From Bdellovibrionales bacterium (lineage in GTDB: Bacteria; Bdellovibrionota; Bdellovibrionia; Bdellovibrionales; JAMPXM01): DNA of 55,371 bases. The notes under the pieces are model-generated. The model was not told where the DNA came from, ran no database searches, and saw only the letters and a list, made by a program, of their open reading frames with translations. Numbering within the stretch: position 1 is the first letter of the stretch; each line of letters begins with the position of its first letter. Where the stretch lies: assembly GCA_005808505.1 (NCBI GenBank), contig SYLX01000104.1, positions 1-55,371 of the forward strand. The letters are read 5' to 3'. This document shows, one piece after another, positions 610-52,267 of the stretch. A program made the translations under genes and the position numbers.

Positions 610-849
610 CGCATCCGTGCGCGTAGTACGGCTTCACCTTAAAAGTCGGTAGCCGCCTCGGCTCTGTCGCATCACCCACGGCATCACCCACGCCCATAGC
701 GCTTCCTTAAGGCGGCGCTAAGCTGACCTTCTTGTAAAGGAAAGAGTGAGACCCTCGCAACCTGCCGAGATGTTCTTGATGGAATCTCCACGGGTGCACG
801 AATTCGTGTGCTGATCTCTAGTGCGATCGACTACAGACAAAATAAGATT

Positions 850-6259: not shown

Positions 6260-6389
6260 GGGACTACCGACAAGATTGAATTTGGCACACGCATCAGGTG
6301 GAGCGGCATGATTTTCATTGGCCAGTTTACTCGCGCACGTTAGAGTGCGCGAAAACGCCATGAACTGTCCTTGACCGAGGAGCCGAGCC

Positions 6390-9682: not shown

Positions 9683-10147
9683 ATGTTAAAAATCGAAGAG
9701 CCAAAAAACTTCTCTCAGGAATCTGTCCGCGAATTTCAAGACGGCGATTGCATCTTTGCTGAAGGTGACGAAAGCCGCGAGATGTACGTCGTTCTCGAAG
9801 GCAGCGTCTCGATCTCAAAGCGGTCTGCAAAAGGGGAAATCGAACTCGCCGTTCTCCGCAAAGGGGAATTCGTAGGCGAAATGTCGTTACTCGAATCGCT
9901 CCCGCGAAGTGCGACAGCCAAAGCAAAAGGTAAAACGAAACTTTTGGCGATTCATCCGGGCGGTTTTTTGCTGAAGATTCGCCGCGATCCCACGTTTGCC
10001 TTCGAACTCCTGCAAACACTTTCAAAACGTATTCGGGTAACGAACGAAAGCCTTATGAAAGAGCTCGGTCGCAATGGCTCGTCGACTGATTCGTTGAAGG
10101 CGATTCTGCAAGGTTCAGAATTCAATTCCGGAAGCGAACAGAAATGA
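9683..10147 (+). CDS. stand-alone cyclic-nucleotide-binding (CAP-effector) domain protein
   Basis: cNMP-binding fold motifs (FAEGDESREMYVVLEGSV...GEMSLL...RSATAKA) with no HTH. ATG at 9683; the upstream part of the ORF-track ORF is Arg-rich and probably non-coding. Confidence 0.7.
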   Translation: MLKIEEPKNFSQESVREFQDGDCIFAEGDESREMYVVLEGSVSISKRSAKGEIELAVLRKGEFVGEMSLLESLPRSATAKAKGKTKLLAIHPGGFLLKIRRDPTFAFELLQTLSKRIRVTNESLMKELGRNGSSTDSLKAILQGSEFNSGSEQK

Positions 10148-10962
10148 TCACGGAGATTCGCAACCGCAAACTCGCCGTCATCTCGGATTTGCACTTGGGC
10201 AACCCTTTTTCGAAAGCGAAAGGTCCAACCGTCGAGTTTCTCGCGTGGGCCCAACGCAACGATTACGACGTTGTCATCAATGGCGACGGCTTCGAGATCG
10301 CCCAGGTGTCGTTTTCAAAAATTGCTCGCGACGTTCCTGAGGTCTTTCACGCACTGAAAACTTTCACCGGCCGCGGGCGGAACGTCTACTACGTCATTGG
10401 GAACCACGACATTGTTCTCGAGCACTTCCTCAACGACTGGGGCGGCTTCAAGATGGCGCCGTTTCTCAACGTTTGGTCGGGAGACCAGCGGATCCGCATC
10501 GAGCACGGACATCTCTACGATCCCTTCTTTGTTAAACATCCAGCGCTTTACGAGTTTCTCACTTGGGCCGCGGGCATTCCTTTAGCGCTTCACCCGAGTC
10601 TGTATAAACTTTGGATCAAGTTCGAAAAGACGAAGTCCAAACTTCTCTGGAAAAAGCCTGGCGAAGAAGGTGGCATCGTCGGTGAACATCAAGCGTTTCG
10701 CGAAGCGGCCGTTGAGCTCTCTCGAAGAGGATTTGACGTCGTCGTCTTCGGACATACTCACCATGCGGGAACAGCCCCGCTCCCCGAAGGAAAGCGCTAT
10801 TTCAATTGCGGAAGCTGGTTGATGGGAACGCCTTTTGTAGAGATCAACGACGGCAAAGTGGAGTTGCGATTCTGGGACCGCGAAAAACGCCGGCTTGATG
10901 CCTCGTTTGCGCAAGAGCTTTCCGCCTCAGATCCGCCGCTTCTCAACGATCGAGTGGGTTGA
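10144..10962 (+). CDS. calcineurin-like metallophosphoesterase (LpxH/CpdA-type motifs)
   Basis: DxH (ISDLHLG), GD (INGDGFE), GNHD, EHGH and GHTHH metal-binding motifs. Its start overlaps the upstream stop (ATGA). Confidence 0.75.
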   Translation: MITEIRNRKLAVISDLHLGNPFSKAKGPTVEFLAWAQRNDYDVVINGDGFEIAQVSFSKIARDVPEVFHALKTFTGRGRNVYYVIGNHDIVLEHFLNDWGGFKMAPFLNVWSGDQRIRIEHGHLYDPFFVKHPALYEFLTWAAGIPLALHPSLYKLWIKFEKTKSKLLWKKPGEEGGIVGEHQAFREAAVELSRRGFDVVVFGHTHHAGTAPLPEGKRYFNCGSWLMGTPFVEINDGKVELRFWDREKRRLDASFAQELSASDPPLLNDRVG

Positions 10963-16692: not shown

Positions 16693-17730
16693 ATGAAATT
16701 CCATCGCACGTACTCGCAGATTCGATTGGCTTTAGCGGCCGTCGCGGTCGCGGTTTTGGCGCCGACGGCAGCATTTGCGGCTAACTTCTTTGTGCAAGAC
16801 ACCATCGTCGACGACGGCATTGATGCCGAGGCGGCTCGCGTCGCGACCAATCTTGTAAAGAACGCGGTTGCGGCGCGGGCTGCTGATCAACTCGTGGCGG
16901 ATGAATACCGCGCGAGCTACGTACTTCAGCCTCGCCTCATGCGCTTGGGCGACAGCTGGATTCTGACGGTGGAAAAAGTCCGCGGTCAGGAGACCTTGTT
17001 CGCGGCGCAAACGAAGGTGCGCCGAATCGACCAACTTGATCAGGCCGCGCGCAGCGCAACGGCTGCCGCGATTGATGAGCCTTCGCTTCAAGAAGGGCCT
17101 CGCAATTTAGCGGGCATTCAAGCGGACCCGGCGATCCCTTACCGCGTAGCGCCTTCGACGCGCGACCGGATCATCGTTGTTGATCCGTCGGGCTCGGTGT
17201 CGGGTACGACGACGGATTTGGAATCGGCGCGCAGTAGCGGCGAGATCCGTTCCGATCGCGCGGCGGACCTGTGGCCTGCTGAACGCAAAGTTAGCTACTG
17301 GACGATCGGGATTGGGCCGTTTCTCTCGCGCCGCCTTGAGAGCGATAGCGTGATGTATAACTTCGCGCTCGGACACACTTGGGACATCAACCCGCGTGCT
17401 TCCGTGAAGGCGATTGGAGAGGCGAACTTCTCGTCAAGCGGCGACGGCGCTCGCTTCTTTAACTTGGCGGCGGGTGCGAACTATTTCTTCCCGACTCGTG
17501 ACGTGGATACGTCACCGTACGTGACGGCGGATATTGGTTACGGATTCGCAACCAATGTGAGCCGCGATGAAGCTGAAGGCTTCAGCTTCGGGACCGGCGT
17601 GGGCTTCCAATTCTTCCGCACGACCGAAACGACGCTCGACCTCCTTCTCCGCTACGCCGTTATCTTCGATAACGTGAATGGCGAGGGGAACCCGGGGGTG
17701 GCGGGGTTGCGGATGGCCGTGAACTTCTAG
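16693..17730 (+). CDS. outer-membrane beta-barrel protein (hypothetical)
   Basis: Signal peptide (ALAAVAVAVLAPTAAFA) and an alternating hydrophobic C-terminal strand ending ...LRMAVNF. Its stop codon lies inside the left inverted repeat of the IS. Confidence 0.5.
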   Translation: MKFHRTYSQIRLALAAVAVAVLAPTAAFAANFFVQDTIVDDGIDAEAARVATNLVKNAVAARAADQLVADEYRASYVLQPRLMRLGDSWILTVEKVRGQETLFAAQTKVRRIDQLDQAARSATAAAIDEPSLQEGPRNLAGIQADPAIPYRVAPSTRDRIIVVDPSGSVSGTTTDLESARSSGEIRSDRAADLWPAERKVSYWTIGIGPFLSRRLESDSVMYNFALGHTWDINPRASVKAIGEANFSSSGDGARFFNLAAGANYFFPTRDVDTSPYVTADIGYGFATNVSRDEAEGFSFGTGVGFQFFRTTETTLDLLLRYAVIFDNVNGEGNPGVAGLRMAVNF

Positions 17731-18841
17731 AACTGGTCCACCTTTGTGCTTACGTCGGCGGGAGTTTGCAAGGGATGGCGATAGAAGATTGGCCAGATCC
17801 TTGCTTTTCCCACCGGCGTGCGTCCCGAATGCCCGTATCGCCATATTCATCCTCATACCGCGTCCGGCAATCGGAAGATCGTCCGACTTGGAAGTTACCG
17901 CCGTAAGTCCGATGGTCGTCGCGTGAAACGCTTTCGATGCAACGAATGCGGCAAGGGCTTTTCGCACGCAACTCGAAGCGCCTGCTACAAACAAAACAAA
18001 AGACATTTAAACGATCGGTTTCGCAAACTATTCGCATCGGGAATTTCTCAGCGCCGACTCGCGCGATTGTTTTCGGTCAGTCGCACGACGGTCGTGCGTA
18101 AGCACCTATTCCTCGCGAGTCAGTCTCGCGGAAAGGTACAACGTACTGAAACGACCGAACCCGTTTTTGAGATTGTTGAGTTTGATGATCTCGAAACCTT
18201 CGAACACACAAAGTTCAAACCTCTGTCAGTCTTTTTGGCCGTCGAGTATAAGACTCGCAGGGTCATCGATCTGGAAGTTGCGCGAATGCCAGCGAAGGGC
18301 AAACTCTCCGCAAGGGCTTTGAAAAAGTATGGTCCTCGAGAGGATGAGCGACCGGCTGCGCGACGTCGGTTATTCGAACGAATTCAATCGCGTGTTAGTT
18401 CTGTCGCGATTTTTAAATCCGATATGAATCCACACTACCCGCTCGATCTTAAGCGCGCGTTCCCGCACGCAGAACACCGACGCTTCAAAGGACGTCGTGG
18501 ATGCATCGTGGGTCAGGGTGAACTGAAGCGCGGAGGCTTCGATCCACTCTTTTCGTTCAATCATACAGCGGCGATGTTCCGGGCAAACGTGAACCGCCTA
18601 TTCCGAAGAACTTGGAACACGACCAAACGTCCAGATCGCTTGGCCGATCACTTGATGATCTACGCGCACTATCACAATTCGACTTTGATCTGATTTCGAT
18701 AAGTTACCTAAAAGCGAATTTTTTTTCGTCCGGACTGCTTTTATCGATAGGGCTGTTTCGTTACCGACTTAATTGGGTTCGAGTCCCGCCTACCCTGTCG
18801 ATTCCTCTCCAGTCGTAACCATCAAGGTGGGCCAGTTCTAG
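17727..18841 (+). mobile_element. IS1-family insertion sequence (about 1.1 kb) with about 33-bp imperfect terminal inverted repeats
   Basis: IRL 17727-17759 (ctagaactggtccacctttgtgcttacgtcggc) against the reverse complement of 18809-18841 (ctagaactggcccaccttgatggttacgactgg) gives about 26/32 matches. A single transposase ORF lies inside. Confidence 0.6.
17818..18693 (+). CDS. IS1-family transposase (fused InsA-InsB-like)
   Basis: N-terminal Cys/His zinc-finger (CPYRH...CNECGKGF), an HTH (ISQRRLARLFSVSRTTV), a DDE region (EFDDLETF...SVFLAVEYKTRRVIDLEVA resembling InsB EMDEQWGYVG...WLFYAYD) and a C-terminus (NVNRLFRRT...RLADHLMIYAHYHN) resembling the IS1 InsB tail. GTG start. Confidence 0.7.
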   Translation: MRPECPYRHIHPHTASGNRKIVRLGSYRRKSDGRRVKRFRCNECGKGFSHATRSACYKQNKRHLNDRFRKLFASGISQRRLARLFSVSRTTVVRKHLFLASQSRGKVQRTETTEPVFEIVEFDDLETFEHTKFKPLSVFLAVEYKTRRVIDLEVARMPAKGKLSARALKKYGPREDERPAARRRLFERIQSRVSSVAIFKSDMNPHYPLDLKRAFPHAEHRRFKGRRGCIVGQGELKRGGFDPLFSFNHTAAMFRANVNRLFRRTWNTTKRPDRLADHLMIYAHYHNSTLI

Positions 18842-39388: not shown

Positions 39389-40246
39389 TTAGCGCGGCTT
39401 TGAATACTTACTCACTCGCTTTGCGAGTTCTTCGAGGTCTTTCACTGATTGATCGAGGTCTCGCGACGCTTGGCCGCGTCCCGTGTCGATCTCGTTCAGC
39501 GCCGAGGTAATGCGCTGGAGTTCCAAAAGTGCTTTTTCATTTGCCTGCAATCGATCGATGAGATCTGAAAGTGTCTTCTCCCGAACGGCGAGCTGATCTT
39601 TCACGATTGCAAGTTCACGCCTTTCCTTCTCCGGTAAATCGTTGCGGTCCGCAAGACTCTGAACGCGCTTTAAGAGATGCCTTGAATCGATCGATGTGAG
39701 GTTTTGAAAAAGACCCACGACACTCTGCAGACTATCCATCACGCCGAGAAAAACTTGTTCACCCGCTCCGAGGTAGCGGTCGTAAGTGATCTCACCGCGA
39801 TCAAACTTTTGGTCAAGACTCGAGCGGAAGTTTTTGTATCTCTTTAGGGCCTGATCGTACTGAGTTTGCGCGCGAGTCACGTTCTCTTCGTCGAGATTTT
39901 CGAGAAACTGACTTTTCGAAAGAGCGCGCCGAATACCTTTATGCACGTCCGTTTCAAAACTTTGCGCCTGCGCCAGCTGCGCCGCCTCGATGGATTCGCG
40001 ATTTTTTAAGTAGAGGATCCACCCTGGAACAGCGAGAAAGAAAAATCCGAAAGCAAGAACCCATGCAAACGGCGATCCCGTGAAAAGCGCCCCAACAACG
40101 ATGATCGAACCAGTCACAAAAGGAATTTTGAAGTCGCCGTCTTTCACGATCTTCGAAACAGGTAAGCCTGACGCGCGAGTTTGCGGCAAACGGCTTTTTC
40201 CTGAATCTGCTGCATTCCCTTGTTTGTTCTGCGGAAGGTCGGCCAT
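39389..40246 (-). CDS. XpaC-like membrane protein (5-bromo-4-chloroindolyl phosphate hydrolysis protein family)
   Basis: Two adjacent N-terminal TM helices followed by a coiled-coil domain, lying immediately upstream of the TelA-like gene. Confidence 0.4.
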   Translation of the reverse strand: MADLPQNKQGNAADSGKSRLPQTRASGLPVSKIVKDGDFKIPFVTGSIIVVGALFTGSPFAWVLAFGFFFLAVPGWILYLKNRESIEAAQLAQAQSFETDVHKGIRRALSKSQFLENLDEENVTRAQTQYDQALKRYKNFRSSLDQKFDRGEITYDRYLGAGEQVFLGVMDSLQSVVGLFQNLTSIDSRHLLKRVQSLADRNDLPEKERRELAIVKDQLAVREKTLSDLIDRLQANEKALLELQRITSALNEIDTGRGQASRDLDQSVKDLEELAKRVSKYSKPR

Positions 40247-40555: not shown

Positions 40556-41560
40556 ATGGGTCTTTTCAGCTTCTTCAAAAAACAGTTTCTCGATGTTTTG
40601 GAGTGGACCGAAGACTCAAACGGAGTTCTCGCCTTCCGGTTCCCCATGCAGGATCGCGAAATTCAGAATGGCGCTCAACTGACCGTTCGGGACACGCAAG
40701 TGGCCCTTTTCGTTAACGAAGGCGAAATTGCCGATCTTTTTGAGCCAGGTCGCCACCAGCTGAACACCGGAAACTTGCCGATGCTCACGAATCTGAAGAA
40801 CTGGGACAAGTTCTTCGAATCCCCGTTCAAATCGGATGTGTACTTTTTCTCAACGAGAGAACAGCTAGACCAACGTTGGGGAACGACAACACCGATCACC
40901 GTGCGCGATAAAGAGTTCGGACCTATCCGCCTACGTGCGCACGGAACGTATTCGTTTCGCATCAAAAACCCACGCGTGTTTTTCAAGAAGGTCAGCGGAA
41001 CAAGAGACCTTGTGACGGTTGAGGATCTCCAAGGTCAGCTCCGTGCCACGGTCCTGACGTCGCTTGCGACATTCTTCGGTTCGGGTCAGGTCGCTTTCCT
41101 TGACATGGCCGCAAACCAGACAAAGTTCTCTGAGACTTTGAAAGAAGCGCTTGATCCTGCCTTCAATGAATATGGGCTCGCGCTCGCTTCATTCTATGTC
41201 CAAAGCATTTCGCTTCCGGATGAGCTTCAAGCTCATCTCGATAAGGTGGCCGGAATGCGCATGGTGGGCGATCTTCGCAAATACGCTCAGTTCCAAACAG
41301 CCGACAGTCTCACCGCGGCGGCTACGAACCCCGGCGGAGCTGCTGGCGCAGGCGCAAGTTTAGGCGCTGGCCTCGCGATGGGCCAAGCGATGGCGAATGC
41401 GCTTTCGGGTCCAGGCTCCGGCTTTGGGGATAATTCAGGAACTCCGTCCGAAGATCCGCTCACGACGATCAGCAAGCTCCACGATTTGATGACGAAGGGT
41501 GTGATTTCGCAGACTGAGTTCGAGGCAAAGAAAGCAGAGCTTCTCAAGAAGATCACATGA
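40556..41560 (+). CDS. SPFH/Band-7 domain protein with C-terminal SHOCT domain (YdjI-like)
   Basis: N-terminus MGLFSFFKKQFLDVLEWTED typical of the YdjI-type Band_7 family. C-terminal SHOCT (ISKLHDLMTKGVISQTEFEAKKAELLKKI). Confidence 0.7.
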   Translation: MGLFSFFKKQFLDVLEWTEDSNGVLAFRFPMQDREIQNGAQLTVRDTQVALFVNEGEIADLFEPGRHQLNTGNLPMLTNLKNWDKFFESPFKSDVYFFSTREQLDQRWGTTTPITVRDKEFGPIRLRAHGTYSFRIKNPRVFFKKVSGTRDLVTVEDLQGQLRATVLTSLATFFGSGQVAFLDMAANQTKFSETLKEALDPAFNEYGLALASFYVQSISLPDELQAHLDKVAGMRMVGDLRKYAQFQTADSLTAAATNPGGAAGAGASLGAGLAMGQAMANALSGPGSGFGDNSGTPSEDPLTTISKLHDLMTKGVISQTEFEAKKAELLKKIT

Positions 41561-47522: not shown

Positions 47523-48623
47523 ATGTTGAGTCAGGCGCAAAGGTCTCGCCAACCGTGGATCCACTCGGCCGCTTTTGATCTCGTCTTCATTTTAGCGCCG
47601 GCGCTTCTGGTGACTTTGTTCGTTCTGGCGCGGCCGGATTGGTTTTCCGGCCCTGTAGCCGTTTCGCCGCTTGCATGGCTTTTGCTCGTTTTGTGCGTGG
47701 ATGTGAGCCATGTCTACTCGACTCTATACAAAACTTATTTTGATCCCGCGGAGTTCCGTGAACGGCGCACGCTCTACACTCTTGTTCCTCTTTTCGTGTG
47801 GCTTGCGGGAGTTGTGCTTTACTCGTTCGGCGCGTTGGCTTTCTGGCGCACGCTCGCTTACTTAGCCGTGTTTCACTTTGTCAGGCAGCAGTACGGCTTC
47901 ATGCGCTTATACTCGGTGGAAGACAATCGCGGTGCGCGATTGTTGAACGCGGCCGCAATCTACGCGGCGACTCTTTATCCACTCGTCTATTGGCACACCA
48001 ATCTCCCCCGTCAGTTTCAGTGGTTTGTTGAAGGAGACTTCGTTTCACTGCCTTGGTCGTGGCTTGAGTCGGTTGCCTTCATCGCTTATGTTGCCGTGCT
48101 CAGTTTATATCTCTTGAAAGAAGTGTGGGTAGGATGGCGGCGGCGAAGTGTGAACTTACCGAGGAATCTCCTGCTTATCGGAACGGCGCTTTCTTGGTAC
48201 GTCGGAATTGTGACCTTCAACGGTGATCTCGCGTTTACTGCTACTAACGTGATCGCGCACGGGCTTCCGTATCTCGCGTTGATTTGGATCACGGGACGCA
48301 AGCGCGAAAGCTCCTTGATCTTCGGAGTAAGGCGCGGATGGGTTTTCGGCGCGATGGCAGCGCCGCTTTTCGTGGGCTTTCTAGTAGTTTTAGCTTTCGT
48401 TGAAGAAGGCTTTTGGGATGCGCTCGTTTGGCGCGATCACACATCGATCTTTGGATTGTTCTCTTTCCTGCCGCAACTTACGGACGCGGCTCTACTGGCG
48501 TTCGTCGTTCCGCTTCTCGCCGTGCCGCAAGCGACTCATTACGTCTTAGACGGATTTATTTGGCGTCGCGGTCGCGTTGTCGCGGCCAGTGAAACAGCGG
48601 CACCAGTTCGTGCGGCTTCGTGA
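47523..48623 (+). CDS. polytopic His-rich integral membrane protein (unknown function)
   Basis: About 9 TM helices with conserved-looking His positions (VDVSHVYS, FHFVRQQYGF, VIAHGLPY, ATHYVLDGF). Starts 3 nt after the upstream stop. Confidence 0.5.
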   Translation: MLSQAQRSRQPWIHSAAFDLVFILAPALLVTLFVLARPDWFSGPVAVSPLAWLLLVLCVDVSHVYSTLYKTYFDPAEFRERRTLYTLVPLFVWLAGVVLYSFGALAFWRTLAYLAVFHFVRQQYGFMRLYSVEDNRGARLLNAAAIYAATLYPLVYWHTNLPRQFQWFVEGDFVSLPWSWLESVAFIAYVAVLSLYLLKEVWVGWRRRSVNLPRNLLLIGTALSWYVGIVTFNGDLAFTATNVIAHGLPYLALIWITGRKRESSLIFGVRRGWVFGAMAAPLFVGFLVVLAFVEEGFWDALVWRDHTSIFGLFSFLPQLTDAALLAFVVPLLAVPQATHYVLDGFIWRRGRVVAASETAAPVRAAS

Positions 48624-48652
48624 TGGTTTAAAGTTCGCCGCGGTGGCGCGAT

Positions 48653-48684
48653 GCATCTCCACAAGGTGCCAGGCACCTTTGTGT
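48653..48684. repeat. copy A of a 32-33-bp palindrome-containing repeat (gcatctccacaaggtgccaggcacctttgtgt)
   Basis: Core perfect inverted repeat AAGGTGCC-A-GGCACCTT (48663-48679). It matches copy B at 51275-51306 in 31/32 positions. Confidence 0.8.
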
Positions 48685-48766
48685 TCACTTCCCGTCCGGA
48701 GCTCGTTACCGATTGGTGGCGCGGCGCTTCTGCAAAAGGAAACTGGTACCGCGGCCCCCGACCCTC

Positions 48767-51124
48767 TCAGCGAAATGGCCGCGCCTGCTTAATGATGATC
48801 GTGCGTGAGGGGCCGTAGATCTTCCACTCAACGTCGATCGCGAAGTCATAAAAATCCTTCTGATAGATCTTCGCGAGTTCGCCGTGTACGTAATGAAGTG
48901 CACGTGCAAGCTCCCGCAGCTCATCGCGCTTTCCCGCGTCAGAGGACTGACCAGAAATCTCGCCCGCTGCTTTTAAAACGGTTTCGCCGTTTTTAACTGA
49001 AGAGGATCGGACACGTTCGAACGGCCACTTCTTCCACGCACCAGCCTTCGCATTGTCGTCGGGGTTCGCGAGGAACGTTGTAACCAACGTCTCCTCTGTC
49101 ACGTAGGACTTCGTTGGATCTTCGCCGACTTCGACCAATTCCTCCTTGGTCGGAGGGTTCGTCACTGCAAGATCATAGTGTTGAGCGTTGATGTAGATCT
49201 TGCCGTCTTCTTCAAAGTTGTAAATGTTTGCGGTGATCGCGACGCCGTTTGCAACTTCCCCTTCTTTGCCGTCGAAATCCAAGCGCGGGAAGGCGCCGTG
49301 AACCGCCAATCCGACTTTGATGTCTAGATGCTGAGAACCGTTCATCGAGTACCACTCGCGCTCAAGGAAAGCGCGTTCGTTCCAGACACCTGCGTAGAGG
49401 CTTGGGATATCTTTGCGAAGATCTTCTTCAATCTTCTCCCACTTCTTCGGCTCGTTGCGATCGAAGCCCTTCTTCTTTTTATAGAGGTTGATCCCGAGCG
49501 AGTCGTAGAGACCTGCGCCCGTGAAGCCTTCTAGGTCTTCGGAGTTCGTGCTGCTGCGGAAGCGGAGGCGCGGATGCTTCGAGATATAAAGAGGCGACGT
49601 CGTATCTTCCATGATCGCGTGGCGAAGAAGATCAACTAAACGCTGCGGGAGTTGCGCACGTGAAACTACGGCGCGAACTTCTTCCAGCGTCGGGCGCACG
49701 ACCGAAATCGAATGAATTTTATCTGGATTGAGCAGATCGCCCTTGTTCAAAATCTCAACGATTCTCTCCTGTGGAGTCATCACCCGCTCAGGATTGGCGG
49801 AGTCGAGACCTTTTTGTTTCAAGTTGATGAATTGCTCATAGAAGTTAAAAGGAATCCCAACCGTATCGGGTGAGATTAAAGTTTCGCTCTTCACGCGGCT
49901 AATGACTTGCGAGAGAACACCGAGGTTCGCCGCTTTTGCTCCCACGATCTGAACCAGACGCGAGTGCTCCTTGCGCGTCGGGCGTTTTTTAAAATACGTG
50001 TCGAGACGGACCAGCTCATTGTCGTAGCGTGGATCAAGAATAAAGCTTGGCTTTCCATTAAGCTTTGGCTTTTTCGATTTCCAGAACGCGGCGATTTGCG
50101 CTTCGGCCTTTGCAGAATCAAGTTCGCGGATCGTGTACTTCGAACCTTCCACACGCAGCTCCACGGCTTTTCCTTCGTACGCACGTAAGGCTTGCTTCGC
50201 GTCTTTCAGATACATGTTCGCGGTGCCGCGGTTCATGCTCTTGACGTTGACGTGCGAGAGCGGTGTTTGCGGCTCCGCCGTCACTACTCCGCCGACAAGG
50301 CCAATTTCGTTCGGAACTTGATCGAACACAGCAATGTCTTTGATTTCAAGTGGCGAAATTCCTGGTCCGCTCACGTTGACGAAACGGACGTATCCGTAAG
50401 CCACTCCCTCGTTCAAAGCCAGATAAGTGATATTTCCCAGAAGATCTTTGGTGAGAACGTAATCCGCCGGAGCAAAGTTCTTCACGACCATTTGCTCCTG
50501 CTCAACACTGAGAGGATGAATCTTCAACTTCAAACTTTTCGGAAGAGAGTCCTGGATATCGCTCGCGAGGCTCAAGAGACCCTGAGCATCCATCGTATCC
50601 CCGCTCCAGAGTTCTAAAAGTGCCGGAGCGCCAACCTTCGTCGGAAGAATCACCGAAGCCAAAGCATATTCACGCTCTGTCAAAGGCCCACTATAGTTAC
50701 GATTGAACTCTTCATTGCCGCGGTTGAAGCCGAGCACTTCACTCGCGTACGAAAAGTGATATTGATACTTCTTCGTGTTGATGAAATGAACTTTACGACC
50801 CGACTTCGCATTGACGTCGTAAACAACTTTGACGACAAGATTTTCGCTCACGCCGATTTTCATACGGCGAGCAAGTTTCTCAAGACCTTCGACTGAAGAG
50901 TCATTCGTTACGTCCGCGACGACTCCGGCCTTCGGTGCTTTTTGAAGTGAGGGCGGAGCGAAACCAGCTGCAGGCGCTTGCTGAACCTGAGAGCGTAAAG
51001 GTTCCAGGCAAACCTGGGGTCCGACGGGACGCTTAGGTGTACCGGGCGGACATTCAGCTCCGTAAGCGTAAGTGCTGTGAACAACGATCGTCATCAGCGC
51101 AAGGAGCAGGCGGCGAGCTGTCAT
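48767..51124 (-). CDS. secreted PEP-utiliser-type protein: phosphohistidine (mobile) -like domain + PPDK_N ATP-binding domain
   Basis: Signal peptide, a mobile-domain-like block (GGVVTAEPQTPLSHVNVKSMNRGTANM), PPDK_N hallmarks (IVGAKAANLGVL; RFRSSTNSEDLEGFTGAGLYDS; C-terminal ...IIIKQARP). GGAGG RBS. Confidence 0.65.
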   Translation of the reverse strand: MTARRLLLALMTIVVHSTYAYGAECPPGTPKRPVGPQVCLEPLRSQVQQAPAAGFAPPSLQKAPKAGVVADVTNDSSVEGLEKLARRMKIGVSENLVVKVVYDVNAKSGRKVHFINTKKYQYHFSYASEVLGFNRGNEEFNRNYSGPLTEREYALASVILPTKVGAPALLELWSGDTMDAQGLLSLASDIQDSLPKSLKLKIHPLSVEQEQMVVKNFAPADYVLTKDLLGNITYLALNEGVAYGYVRFVNVSGPGISPLEIKDIAVFDQVPNEIGLVGGVVTAEPQTPLSHVNVKSMNRGTANMYLKDAKQALRAYEGKAVELRVEGSKYTIRELDSAKAEAQIAAFWKSKKPKLNGKPSFILDPRYDNELVRLDTYFKKRPTRKEHSRLVQIVGAKAANLGVLSQVISRVKSETLISPDTVGIPFNFYEQFINLKQKGLDSANPERVMTPQERIVEILNKGDLLNPDKIHSISVVRPTLEEVRAVVSRAQLPQRLVDLLRHAIMEDTTSPLYISKHPRLRFRSSTNSEDLEGFTGAGLYDSLGINLYKKKKGFDRNEPKKWEKIEEDLRKDIPSLYAGVWNERAFLEREWYSMNGSQHLDIKVGLAVHGAFPRLDFDGKEGEVANGVAITANIYNFEEDGKIYINAQHYDLAVTNPPTKEELVEVGEDPTKSYVTEETLVTTFLANPDDNAKAGAWKKWPFERVRSSSVKNGETVLKAAGEISGQSSDAGKRDELRELARALHYVHGELAKIYQKDFYDFAIDVEWKIYGPSRTIIIKQARPFR

Positions 51125-51274
51125 GGAACCTCCGACCGGAGCAGGTTTTCCTTGGAGAATTCAATGATTAGGCCAATATGGTGGCCGTTAAATCCTGTCT
51201 CGACGGCCGCACGAATGATCAACTTTTAGACGTCCTGCCGATGAACGGTACCAGTTACCTTTTGCTGAAGCACC

Positions 51275-51306
51275 GCATCTCCAAAAGGTGCCAGGCACCT
51301 TTGTGT
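51275..51306. repeat. copy B of the 32-33-bp palindrome-containing repeat (gcatctccaaaaggtgccaggcacctttgtgt)
   Basis: Perfect inverted repeat AAAGGTGCC-A-GGCACCTTT (51284-51302) in the divergent promoter region between the PPDK_N gene and the SDR gene. Confidence 0.8.
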
Positions 51307-51379
51307 CCCCCCGCCCGCACGTTGACACGGGAAATCTCGCAAGATGAAAGTGGATCGACGCTCTTTCGCAGGAGACCCC

Positions 51380-52267
51380 ATGAACCGCAGATCTTCGAAC
51401 CGACGTCTCTCGATTTTGGTAACCGGAGCCTCAACCGGAATCGGTCGCGCGCTCGTAGAGAAGTTCGCTTCCGACGGCCATCAAGTGTTTGCCTCCGTCC
51501 GCAAACCTGAAGACGGCGACTCGCTCAACGCTCTCGCGGGAGAAATTATCCCACTCTTCTTCGATGTGACCGACACGGAGGCCGTCTTTCGATGCGCGAA
51601 GGAAGCCGAGCACAAGAGATATCGCGACCGCGCCTTTTGCATCGTTAACAATGCGGGAATCGCGGTAGGCGGCCCACTCGAAATTCTCGACCTAAAAGAT
51701 TTCAAGCGGCAGTTCGAAGTCAATGTGTTCGGAGTTTTTGCGGTCACTCAGGCATTTTTGCCTTTGGTTCGGGCGATGGAAGGCGGACGCATCGTGAACA
51801 TGAGTTCCGTAAGCGGAAAGTTCGCCTCACCTTTCTTGGGTGCTTATTCTTCATCAAAATACGCGCTTGAGGCTTACTCCGATGCCCTCCGCCGCGAACT
51901 CGCCGTCGACGACATCAAAGTCTTGATCATCGAGCCCGGACCGGTCGCAACGCCAATCTGGGATAAAGGATTGAAGATGCCTCGTCCGGAAGGAGCAAAG
52001 CGCTACGAACAAGCGCTTGATCGCTTCGAGCGTTACGTGGATCACATCGTTAAACGCGCGCTTGAGCCCAAACACGTCGTGCGTGCCGTTGAGCGCGCTT
52101 TACTCGAAAACGATCCTCCGCTTCGCCAAATAGTAACAAGCATCGCGAGTAGAGCCGAGTATCAGCTGATGAACCTGCTCCCCGATAAATGGATTGATAA
52201 AGCTCTCGTTCAGCAGCTCTTCAAACCGACGAAGGCCGAAGCCGCTCAGCGGACCGCGCAGTCTTGA
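51380..52267 (+). CDS. short-chain dehydrogenase/reductase (SDR)
   Basis: TGASTGIGRA cofactor motif, NNAG, and the YSSSK catalytic Tyr/Lys. GGAGA RBS. Confidence 0.85.
   Translation: MNRRSSNRRLSILVTGASTGIGRALVEKFASDGHQVFASVRKPEDGDSLNALAGEIIPLFFDVTDTEAVFRCAKEAEHKRYRDRAFCIVNNAGIAVGGPLEILDLKDFKRQFEVNVFGVFAVTQAFLPLVRAMEGGRIVNMSSVSGKFASPFLGAYSSSKYALEAYSDALRRELAVDDIKVLIIEPGPVATPIWDKGLKMPRPEGAKRYEQALDRFERYVDHIVKRALEPKHVVRAVERALLENDPPLRQIVTSIASRAEYQLMNLLPDKWIDKALVQQLFKPTKAEAAQRTAQS

Follow-up and report, generated by a model that had tools for sequence, protein, structure and literature searches.

Two repeats bracketing a secreted PPDK_N-domain gene in a Bdellovibrionales genome are probably copies of a REP/TIR-type hairpin element

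Classical REPs are lineage-specific, imperfect palindromes of 20–40 nt that number tens to hundreds per genome. They are short extragenic palindromes, present in many copies per genome and mostly intergenic, that occur singly, as doublets or in clusters and are paired with RAYT (TnpA-REP) genes, each enzyme clade having its own hairpin (Nunvar 2010, PMC2817692; Bertels & Rainey 2011, PMC3116915). The E. coli RAYT has been solved as 4er8 (Messing 2012, PMC3479197), and classical REPs are marked by a conserved 5′ tetranucleotide, GT[AG]G, where the hairpin stem begins (PMC6006769, PMC3733652). A second group, the TIRtrons with their TIRYT genes (Di Nocera 2013, PMC3733652), has been equated with TnpA-Y1 subclass 2.1 (Quentin 2018, PMC6006769). 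These RAYT-like Y1 genes are longer than RAYTs and are flanked by inverted repeats, at times partly or wholly self-complementary, which can form moderately abundant dispersed families of singles, dimers and clusters. Subclass 2.1 is defined by a C-terminal HTH (Bac_DnaA_C, HTH_23 or HTH_28), and Quentin et al. describe no REP-like sequences near its genes (PMC6006769). In IS200/IS605 elements, a dimeric Y1 HUH enzyme recognizes hairpins on single-stranded DNA, and we use peeling and pasting beside the hairpin as a model here; the ends of these elements differ from the repeats described below in being two unlike imperfect hairpins inside the element, with no dispersed solo palindromes.

Here we analyze a 55,371-nt stretch of DNA from a Bdellovibrionales bacterium (the window; a whole contig), in which two short repeats bracket a gene for a PPDK_N-domain protein. 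We consider it probable that they are copies of a non-autonomous hairpin element of the REP/TIR type, a relic of a known kind of mobile DNA. The wider family of this palindrome shares with REP/RAYT systems short, mostly intergenic palindromes in single, doublet or clustered arrangement and a separate hairpin for each enzyme clade, and with TIRYT systems RAYT-like Y1 genes, longer than RAYTs, between inverted repeats.

Repeats in the window

The initial annotation had described two direct repeats of 32 nt, and both the coordinates it gave (Table 1) and its description hold: copies A and B match at 31 of 32 nt, share one orientation and start 2622 nt apart, and each contains the palindrome AAGGTGCC-A-GGCACCTT, whose symmetry is broken solely at the centre base. 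Both are intergenic, A between a convergent 366-aa gene (stop at 48623) and the PPDK_N gene (stop at 48767), and B between the divergent PPDK_N start (51124) and an SDR gene, again as annotated. The peptide RCQAPLC is indeed common to ORFs at both sites (the ORF at B spans 51178–51510), which is trivial because the DNA of the two copies is identical there. The 17-nt palindrome AAGGTGCCNGGCACCTT has only these two sites in 55 kb even when 2 mismatches are tolerated, with 0.01 expected from shuffles, and a profile search with the element family returned A (E 8e-8) and B (E 1e-8) as the sole significant copies. If one bulge is allowed, the arms reach ~11–12 nt (8 bp, bulge and 3 bp in A; 9 bp, bulge and 2 bp in B). 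Folded as single-stranded DNA, the hairpins have predicted energies of −7.9 kcal/mol (z −3.4) for A and −7.4 kcal/mol (z −3.1) for B. With perfect arms of 8–9 bp, they are short and imperfect compared with their counterparts in other genomes, whose arms are ~20 nt.

Table 1. Features around the PPDK_N gene (window coordinates)
Feature	Position	Strand	Description
Copy A	48653–48684	none	GCATCTCCACAAGGTGCCAGGCACCTTTGTGT; 5′ asymmetric tag GCATCTCCA plus palindrome; core 48662–48680, CAAGGTGCC-A-GGCACCTTT; convergent 3′ intergenic region
Spacer	48685–48707	none	between copy A and arm X′; forms with X′ a module of ~65 nt
Arm X′	48708–48751	none	holds a degenerate tag in reverse complement (TTGGTGGCGC); ends in core-like AAAGGAAAC-T-GGTACC (~48731–48749)
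Bracketed gene	48767–51124	−	785-aa protein; signal-peptide-like N terminus; PPDK_N (PF01326) domain
Arm X	51246–51274	none	starts with core-like AACGGTACC-A-GTTACCTTT (51244–51262)
Copy B	51275–51306	none	GCATCTCCAAAAGGTGCCAGGCACCTTTGTGT; tag GCATCTCCA plus palindrome; core 51284–51302, AAAGGTGCC-A-GGCACCTTT; divergent promoter region

A second repeat, which had escaped the initial annotation, likewise brackets the gene. It is an inverted repeat of 39–44 nt (48708–48751 and 51246–51289; 39 nt in a local alignment) whose arms, X′ and X, are 82% complementary, and it is the longest in the window. The right arm, X, is fused straight into copy B. We considered the core-like motifs in X and X′ as degenerate cores; they carry 4–5 mismatches and are not significant in the profile search, and we therefore treat them as a suggestion only. 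For the 103-nt left junction, the predicted fold is no more stable than those of shuffled sequences (z −0.45); the two arms lie on opposite sides of the gene in the window.

Rfam 15, searched with gathering and permissive thresholds, gave no match at the window elements or in 16 loci from other phyla. Exact-protein look-ups with two window proteins found nothing, and searching the literature with the sequence turned up nothing beyond unrelated matches to primers and UTRs of eukaryotes.

The palindrome family and its Y1 transposase genes

The core, AAAGGTGCC-W-GGCACCTTT, occurs well beyond this locus, and the two window copies belong to a family found in many genomes. The 19-mer AAGGTGCCAGGCACCTTTG has more than 107 exact-match loci in public genomes (596 Gb, both strands), where we estimate that ~4 would be expected; it is present many times over in single genomes of Planctomycetota, Atribacterota, Actinomycetota, Acidobacteriota and other groups. 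In the contigs examined, a MAG from the Planctomycetota has at least 24 GTGCC-W-GGCAC tip sites, one from the Acidimicrobiales at least 12, and several from the Atribacterota 5–8 each. Among the matches listed, 105 of 135 core sites are intergenic (78%, versus 17% of random positions), and 74 of the 85 sites that could be classified lie downstream of at least one gene, gaps between divergent genes holding only 11. Part of the invariance of the core in this large set is a consequence of requiring exact matches; copies outside the search selection retain the core as well. The outer arms vary by lineage yet remain complementary: 11–16 nt from the centre, 72–87% of sites are Watson-Crick complementary, as against 32–49% in shuffled controls, and each position has three or four kinds of pair. 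In AT-rich Atribacterota, A-runs and T-runs flank the hairpins, which thus resemble bidirectional terminators. The outer arm in Planctomycetota, TGTTTCAC, looks like one half of a parS site, but a parS identity was rejected, as the arms differ in other lineages.

A metagenome scan for tag plus core (GCATCTCCANAAGGTGCCWGGCACC) gave 0 matches, and a second scan with CACAAAGGTGCCWGGCACCTTTGTG gave 4, in other lineages and none with a Y1 gene. Viral contigs yielded a single match, and the element is therefore not regarded as phage-borne.

In other genomes the same core brackets Y1 transposase genes in a REPtron-like manner, as mutually inverted copies bracket the Y1 HUH gene of REP/RAYT systems; the 55-kb window, by comparison, encodes no Y1 transposase (best tblastn E 0.08). 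All seven Y1 genes in loci selected by the motif are bracketed on both sides, within ~60 nt. The centre bases of the bracketing pairs are mostly opposite, which marks those copies as mutually inverted. Six of the seven proteins score above the PF01797 cutoff; the seventh (locus L043) has no Pfam match, and tblastn suggests that its frame is disrupted. Among NCBIfam models, that of the REP-associated tyrosine transposase (REP_Tyr_transpos) scores best, at 29–73 bits and thus below its 80-bit equivalog cutoff, and the proteins score closer to this RAYT model than to transpos_IS200. In an alignment of six bracketed proteins with five homologues, the motifs H-x-H (HUH), Y-x-x-x-N-P (containing the Tyr) and Y-x-W-S-S are invariant. 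The profile of this alignment matches 4er8 (E 2e-4), which the profile alone reached; a single-sequence search of the PDB returned nothing. As an independent test, a homologue picked by its protein alone (P0046; an eighth locus, L125) was examined, and three GCGC-GGTGCC-W-GGCACC-GCGC palindromes flank it. Homologues further removed carry other palindromes or TIRs, each its own, which is what co-evolving pairs of enzyme and hairpin should show.

How do these genes and hairpins compare with the described systems? From classical REPs they differ in that GTAG or GTGG is found neither at the foot of either window copy, which has the tag GCATCTCCA instead, nor in the family consensus. Outside the window the element is a near-perfect long palindrome, and its conserved part is the hairpin apex, identical across several phyla. 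The six complete Y1 ORFs encode 273–316 aa, and the associated proteins (~270–316 aa) are thus longer than the 165 aa of 4er8. In this they resemble the TIRYTs, and homologues carry the kind of C-terminal HTH that defines subclass 2.1 (PF08299, PF13384 or PF08281), with a mixed profile matching the DnaA C terminus (E 0.009). In the core-associated proteins themselves, by contrast, such a domain is only weakly detectable (C-terminal halves: HTH_28, E 0.023; HTH_AraC, E 0.16). Moreover, GGTGCC-W-GGCACC does not fit the published GGGGWSAS flanking motif, GGGGTCA(A/T)G flanks being found only at more distant homologues (L120, L122–L124), and neither PMC3733652 nor PMC6006769 contains the palindrome in its text or supplements. 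Dispersed copies, which contrast with the report on subclass 2.1, are plentiful here.

Among the origins offered by the initial annotation, a REP/MITE-like hairpin is the one supported by the recurrence of the core in many genomes, its mostly intergenic position and its bracketing of RAYT/TIRYT-type Y1 genes. A different source within the window is scarcely credible, namely that the copies are a MITE derived from the terminal inverted repeats of an IS1-like element at 17727–18841. The 28-bp TIRs of this element contain CACCTTTGTG, a 10-mer of the right outer arm in both copies, and the TIR and the two copies account for all three occurrences of this 10-mer in the window. However, the best alignments of TIR and junction score 20–21, at about the 95th–99th percentile of random window segments, the TIR is without the GGTGCC-W-GGCACC tip, and the conserved part of the palindrome is central rather than terminal as in TIR-derived MITEs. 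The IS1-like family is also absent from the other palindrome-carrying loci examined.

Module order and copy retention in relatives

The same repeat junctions recur in L113 (ERZ27257035), which was assembled independently from the same strain and is 99.8% identical; they are therefore no assembly artefact. A diverged relative (L114; JGI 3300045146) has the same gene order and orientation. Since the orientation of the gene relative to its flanks is equal in the window and L114, inversion between the two palindromes was ruled out. In the left copy of L114, the orthologue of A, the 19-nt core is unchanged and the outer stem has a compensatory change from CAC/GTG to CGG/CCG; the right copy, the orthologue of B, is interrupted and decayed. 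Two positions separate the tag of the window (GCATCTCC) from that of L114 (GCATCCCG), and they are the same two at either junction.

Arm X is conserved in L114, whose left junction has a 65-nt gap opposite window positions 48686–48750, and the homologous 65-nt module is found at the other junction, on the opposite side of the gene. With P for the palindrome, the order is a / tag-P / spacer-X′ / gene / X-tag-P / d in the window and a / tag-P / gene / X-tag-P*-spacer-X′ / d in L114, and the two are circular permutations of one another. The right junction of L114, X-tag-P*-spacer-X′, is an inverted doublet of ~145 nt with the core at its apex, a layout that can be compared with that of a REPIN, in which two inverted REPs on either side of a short spacer make a single long hairpin. 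The pair of genomes offers what may be a natural before-and-after case of the relocation of a module beside such a hairpin.

It is conceivable, if unlikely, that the palindrome acted as an att-like recombination site and that a circle carrying the PPDK_N gene and a complete element (X-tag-P-spacer-X′) was taken up through crossover in the palindrome, leaving tag and P as direct repeats at both ends. The window order is exactly that expected if a circle of gene plus X-tag-P-spacer-X′ integrated at a chromosomal tag-P site, and L114 displays the other circular permutation. PPDK_N homologues (59% and 50% identity) occupy other, unrelated neighborhoods without the palindrome. The only significant copies in the window sit at one gene, in adjacent intergenic gaps (P ~0.06), which is a weak hint of something locus-specific. 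Against such an entry, no empty site was found, the nearest 5 kb hold neither an integrase nor a recombinase, the GC content of the gene is similar to that of adjacent genes, with no compositional anomaly, and the two genomes agree in gene order and orientation. Their difference is explained equally well if one arm was lost differentially or if the 65-nt module moved by itself, and at more than 100 loci elsewhere the neighbors of the palindrome are unrelated genes, or a Y1 gene instead of cargo. An integron gene cassette was rejected as well, the repeats lacking the RYYYAAC...GTTRRRY core sites of attC and the neighboring genes an integrase. The PPDK_N gene is cargo or a neighbor and lies outside the machinery of the element.

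Could the repeats instead be maintained for a role in RNA? Copy A might be a bidirectional terminator or a 3′ stabilizing stem-loop under selection on transcription, its similarity to sequences elsewhere being incidental. Copy A follows two convergent genes, most classifiable sites elsewhere lie downstream of a gene, the Atribacterota hairpins have terminator-like flanks, it is the left copy that L114 has kept, and REPs are reported to affect termination and mRNA stability (PMC3733652). However, a terminator scan calls neither copy, and the tail after copy A is only TTTGTGTT (CCGCACCC in L114) and lacks the U-run of an intrinsic terminator. RNA folds of the surrounding 61–141 nt are no stabler than shuffles, a terminator has no need of a 19-nt core conserved across phyla, and copy B is in a promoter region. 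As the primary function this is improbable; it is compatible with a hairpin element of the REP/TIR type as a secondary role, and does not replace it.

The initial annotation had also proposed the operator of a dimeric transcription factor, which here would co-regulate the PPDK_N and SDR genes. The site is two-fold symmetric with half-sites of 8–9 bp, and copy B has divergent genes on either side and a conserved TTGACA 16 nt downstream. This proposal finds no support and is very unlikely: across many phyla the genes beside the identical core are unrelated, covariation of the arms extends well past any plausible operator, copy A sits at the 3′ ends of two convergent genes, and in L114 decay has struck the promoter-side copy and spared the 3′-side one, which is useless as an operator. 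Nor is there an adjacent regulator gene. A sigma-54 promoter (TGGCAC-N5-TTGC) was dismissed by eye, the −12 element being absent on either strand.

Proposed origin of the window copies

We favor a REP/TIR-type element whose unit is a short DNA hairpin with a near-invariant apex, AAAGGTGCC-W-GGCACCTTT, and the tip GGTGCC-W-GGCACC, and which in the window lineage also carries the asymmetric 5′ tag. By analogy with IS200/IS605 and the E. coli RAYT, a dimeric Y1 enzyme of the RAYT/TIRYT type, the gene for which an equal hairpin directly brackets in genomes where the hairpin is dispersed through intergenic DNA, may bind this hairpin when it is single-stranded, for example at a replication fork. By cutting and rejoining the DNA beside the hairpin, the enzyme would seed new copies or relocate existing ones. 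The window copies, which occupy both intergenic regions around the PPDK_N gene alongside the second module, X/X′, may have arisen in this way; they would be non-autonomous, since the 55 kb encode no such enzyme. Their appearance as 32-nt direct repeats would be due to tag and hairpin forming the repeat unit of this lineage and to neighboring copies having evolved in concert. Any effect on the host would be secondary; copy A, for example, may serve as a 3′ stem-loop for two convergent transcripts. If so, the palindromes are generic hairpins of mobile DNA and no evidence of dedicated regulation of the secreted PPDK_N protein.

More speculatively, GGTGCC-W-GGCACC may belong to an undescribed pair of Y1 nuclease and hairpin, of ancient origin and spread by horizontal transfer, within the HTH-bearing Y1 subclass. 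Because the 65-nt module is always directly 3′ of the tag and hairpin unit in both genomes, the hairpin at this locus might also be a crossover or insertion point that moved the module or even the whole PPDK_N gene. We consider this combined proposal a tentative one. For research on REP/RAYT systems and HUH enzymes, a palindrome apex common to at least six phyla and tied to a clade of long, probably HTH-bearing Y1 proteins could be of use; the literature searchable here lists no dispersed repeats for that clade. From Atribacterota to Acidimicrobiia, the putative DNA target is identical over 19–33 nt and would be far better conserved than the enzymes, which share 28–42% identity. An identical target paired with enzymes that have diverged by ~70% would make a convenient system for determining how Y1 nucleases read hairpins.

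Composite junctions around the PPDK_N gene

The two direct repeats that the initial annotation placed on either side of the PPDK_N-domain gene, copies A and B, are present as claimed, with 31/32 positions identical and a start-to-start distance of 2622 nt. Each consists of an asymmetric 5′ tag (GCATCTCCA) and a palindrome, P (AAGGTGCC-N-GGCACCTT), which occurs at just two sites in the 55,371-nt window when up to two mismatches are allowed (0.01 expected). The gene, whose GC content is unremarkable, is also bracketed by an inverted repeat, longer than any other in the window, which the annotation did not contain and which makes both junctions composite. Its arms, X′ and X, are 82% complementary along 44 nt; the best local alignment spans 39 nt. 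On the left, tag-P is followed by a 23–28-nt spacer and then X′, part of which is the reverse-complemented tag in degenerate form (TTGGTGGCGC); on the right, X is followed by tag-P without a gap. A terminator scan predicted neither copy as a terminator, and RNA folds of the wider regions around both showed nothing exceptional. Copy A may have a modest function as the 3′ stem-loop of the two transcripts that converge on it.

Features of the window and of loci from other assemblies (L)
Feature	Position	Strand	Description
Copy A	48653-48684		direct repeat, tag + palindrome
Copy B	51275-51306		direct repeat, tag + palindrome
X′	48708-48751		inverted repeat arm
X	51246-51289		inverted repeat arm
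PPDK_N-domain gene	48767-51124	minus	785 aa; between copies A and B
Neighbor, one side			366-aa membrane protein ending a Band_7/spermidine-synthase/amine-oxidase gene row
Neighbor, other side			short-chain dehydrogenase
9-nt direct repeat GGTGGCGCG	48643-48651; 48716-48724		just upstream of copy A tag; inside X′
IS-like element	17727-18841		28-bp TIRs, CTAGAACTGGTCCACCTTTGTGCTTACG + imperfect mirror, 86%
IS-like element ORF	17818-18693	+	291 aa; Cys-rich N terminus, HTH
25-nt inverted repeat	39962-39986; 41333-41357		TTGCGCCTGCGCCAGCTGCGCCGCC / GGCGGAGCTGCTGGCGCAGGCGCAA
Core arrays	L084 3720-3960; L101 2689-2735; L105 806-852; L074 1186-1231; L078 ~6260-6330		tandem or nested
33-nt palindrome	L097 550-600 and 1540-1580		compared with L049, L063
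P0050 locus	L119 ~9900-10000 and 10838-10880		Actinomycetota-like context next to dapB and pnp
P0047 locus	L126 240-1987		directly downstream of DDE_Tnp_1 (IS4/IS5-like) transposase gene

Two relatives carry the same locus. L113, a different assembly of the same strain (99.8% identity), has identical junctions. In L114, gene order is that of the window, PPDK_N is at least 90% identical in amino acids, and intergenic DNA shows ∼72–77% mean column identity in three-sequence alignments. The L114 left junction (GCATCCCGGAAAGGTGCCAGGCACCTTTCCGC) retains the 19-nt core of the palindrome unchanged, has an outer stem of CGG/CCG versus CAC/GTG in the window, folds as ssDNA into a hairpin of 11 pairs with a 3-nt loop (−12.7 kcal/mol), and lacks the 65-nt spacer-X′ module. 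Since the right junction runs from X-GCATCCCGAAGAGGTACCAG through ∼35 nt to X′, X and X′ are neighbors there, forming a ∼145-nt doublet with a decayed core at its apex. The 3′-side copy is thus conserved at the orthologous site and the promoter-side copy is not, which argues against the suggestion that the repeats are a transcription-factor operator. The same two positions distinguish the tags of the two genomes (GCATCTCC versus GCATCCCG) at the left junction and at the right, indicating that the tag is part of the repeat unit and that the copies evolve in concert. Just before arm X, L114 (∼760–800, reverse strand) carries a 14-nt insertion relative to the window that creates a second GGTACC-containing motif (GAGCGGTACCGAAGATTGGTACCAG), a sign of further local turnover.

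Between outer flanks a and d, the window reads a, tag-P, spacer-X′, gene, X-tag-P, d, and L114 reads a, tag-P, gene, X-tag-P*-spacer-X′, d, where P* is the decayed palindrome. In both genomes, a tag-P unit is followed immediately on its 3′ side by the spacer-X′ module, to the left of the gene in the window and to its right in L114; the two arrangements are circular permutations of each other. How could this permutation arise? One possible explanation is differential arm loss, the ancestor having carried a full element on either side of the gene; others are hairpin-targeted relocation of the module, and excision of a gene-plus-element circle with re-integration by crossover at the palindrome. 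The 9-nt direct repeat may be a product of the same module shuffling, or of chance. PPDK_N homologs (59% and 50% identity) occur in different gene neighborhoods that contain no core.

A dispersed intergenic palindrome

The window is a complete NCBI contig, so the core was sought in other genomes. In the species-representative genome collection, >107 stretches match the 19-mer core (AAGGTGCCAGGCACCTTTG) exactly, where by our calculation ∼4 would do so by chance (596 Gb, both strands). The core clusters by genome: judging from record titles, the matches listed include 14 contigs of one Planctomycetota MAG, 10 contigs of one Acidimicrobiales MAG, many Atribacterota MAGs and SAGs, Ca. Phoenicimicrobium, and several Collinsella species, as well as Gaiellales, Solirubrobacteraceae, Acidobacteriota, Caldiserica, and Omnitrophota. 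Counting the fetched pieces alone, there are 5–24 sites per genome of the tip, the GTGCC-W-GGCAC or GGTGCC-W-GGCACC apex. Core sites are mostly intergenic (105/135, versus 17% of random positions) and under-represented between divergent genes (11 of 85 classifiable); no Rfam family matches them. This recurrence across genomes and intergenic bias, together with the bracketing of Y1 transposase genes, support the proposal of a REP/MITE-like hairpin.

The core is the center of longer palindromes whose outer arms vary with lineage (AAAAGTTAACCA...TGGTTAACTTTT, GAAAGTGAAACA...TGTTTCACTTTC, CCACCACA...TGTGGTGG, and CCTACACA...TGTGTAGG). The arms covary: across 151 distinct sites, positions 11–16 from the center are Watson-Crick complementary in 72–87% of sites versus 32–49% when shuffled, each with three or four pair types. 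As requiring exact 19-mer matches biases the set of loci, a control was drawn from the same loci: 27 additional palindromic copies not picked by the search. GTGCC-W-GGCAC is kept nearly throughout this group, and 18–23 of the 27 also keep the four positions beyond it (G, A, A, A). Some Actinomycetota, Acidobacteriota, and other loci contain BIME-like tandem or nested arrays of 2–3 cores within 25–50 nt; L078 has a palindrome nested within a second one.

Y1 transposases flanked by the palindrome

Clustering the ORFs of 107 core loci in search of co-travelling proteins yielded one cross-phylum cluster in which every gene lies between two cores. Its members come from Atribacterota (L043, L049, L063, L064, and L010), Acidimicrobiales (L097), and a gammaproteobacterial MAG (L074); tblastn of these proteins against all loci returned the same seven genes and no others. 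In 7/7, a core lies within ∼60 nt of both ends, and the center bases of the two cores are usually opposite, so that they are mutually inverted. Six proteins match Y1_Tnp (PF01797) above cutoff (E 1e-6 to 1e-17); that of L043, apparently frame-disrupted, has no Pfam match. The best NCBIfam model is REP-associated tyrosine transposase (RAYT), with scores below the equivalog cutoff. When the six bracketed proteins were aligned with five homologs, HUH, the catalytic Tyr (Y-x-x-x-N-P), and a downstream Y-x-W-S-S were invariant, and the profile of these 11 proteins matched 4er8, the solved complex of E. coli RAYT with REP (E 2e-4), with a weak hit to the C-terminal domain of DnaA (E 0.009). Enzymes sharing the AAAGGTGCC-W-GGCACCTTT core are just 28–42% identical between phyla. 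An identical 33-nt palindrome (GTTAACCAAAGGTGCC-W-GGCACCTTTGGTTAAC) surrounds Y1 genes in the Acidimicrobiales MAG and several Atribacterota MAGs, where the products are only 28–32% identical: conservation is much stronger in the DNA than in the protein.

A protein search gave homologs that JGI often names "REP element-mobilizing transposase RayT", several of them with C-terminal Bac_DnaA_C, HTH_23, or Sigma70_r4_2 domains. Six were fetched blind to the DNA motif. P0046, which shares 35% identity with the L097 protein across 93% of its length, is flanked by three palindromes, one upstream and two downstream (GTTGYTGCGC-GGTGCC-W-GGCACC-GCKCARCATGTT), which independently confirms the tip. P0050 has GTGTCAACTGGGGTC-W-GACCCCAGTTGACAC on both sides, and P0080, P0057, and P0123 have flanking repeats GGGGTCA(A/T)GTCTT... 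The flanks of P0047 contain no recognizable palindrome; the region may be rich in IS elements, or the copy may have decayed. One hairpin per enzyme clade, as seen among these homologs, has likewise been described for RAYT/REP pairs (PMC6006769). The P0050 palindrome resembles two published TIRYT ends (GGGGWSAS) joined head to head, with the architecture of GGTGCC-W-GGCACC, hinting that such palindromes may arise from abutted TIR ends.

Mechanism and relation to known elements

By analogy with IS200/IS605 TnpA and E. coli TnpA-REP (PMC3479197, PMC6006769), a dimeric HUH enzyme would recognize the hairpin on single-stranded DNA and cleave and rejoin beside it, dispersing copies. Since the apex is invariant and the outer stem covaries freely, we suggest that sequence reading by the protein is confined to the top 9 bp and loop, with pairing alone needed below these. 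We speculate that a C-terminal HTH could read the 9-bp duplex, the same sequence serving as hairpin and duplex. As no Y1 enzyme of this type is encoded in the 55,371 nt, the copies in the window are non-autonomous.

REP/RAYT systems are already known (PMC2817692, PMC3116915). Especially close to our element is the class that Di Nocera et al. call TIRtron/TIRYT, in which RAYT-like genes lie between inverted repeats; some of these repeats are self-complementary, and they form moderately abundant families of singles, dimers, and clusters (PMC3733652). For Quentin et al., the class corresponds to TnpA-Y1 subclass 2.1, whose long proteins end in a DnaA_C/HTH_23/HTH_28-like domain and whose genes have GGGG[AT][CG]A[CG] flanks; near these genes they found no REP-like sequences (PMC6006769). 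The core-associated proteins, which may belong to subclass 2.1 proper, on their own show weak HTH matches (HTH_28, E 0.023; HTH_AraC, E 0.16). Our palindrome contains neither the GT[AG]G tag of REP/RAYT nor the TIRYT GGGGWSAS motif, and we did not find it in the text or accessible supplements of PMC3733652 and PMC6006769 or by literature sequence search. We therefore file it as new within a known kind of element.

The window also contains an IS-like element, whose ORF best matches the NCBIfam IS1 family transposase model (54 bits, below the 100-bit cutoff). The 10-mer CACCTTTGTG is common to its left TIR and the outer arm of copies A and B, but the overall alignment is not significant. Finally, a 25-nt inverted repeat (92% complementary, arms 1346 nt apart) may lie within coding sequence.
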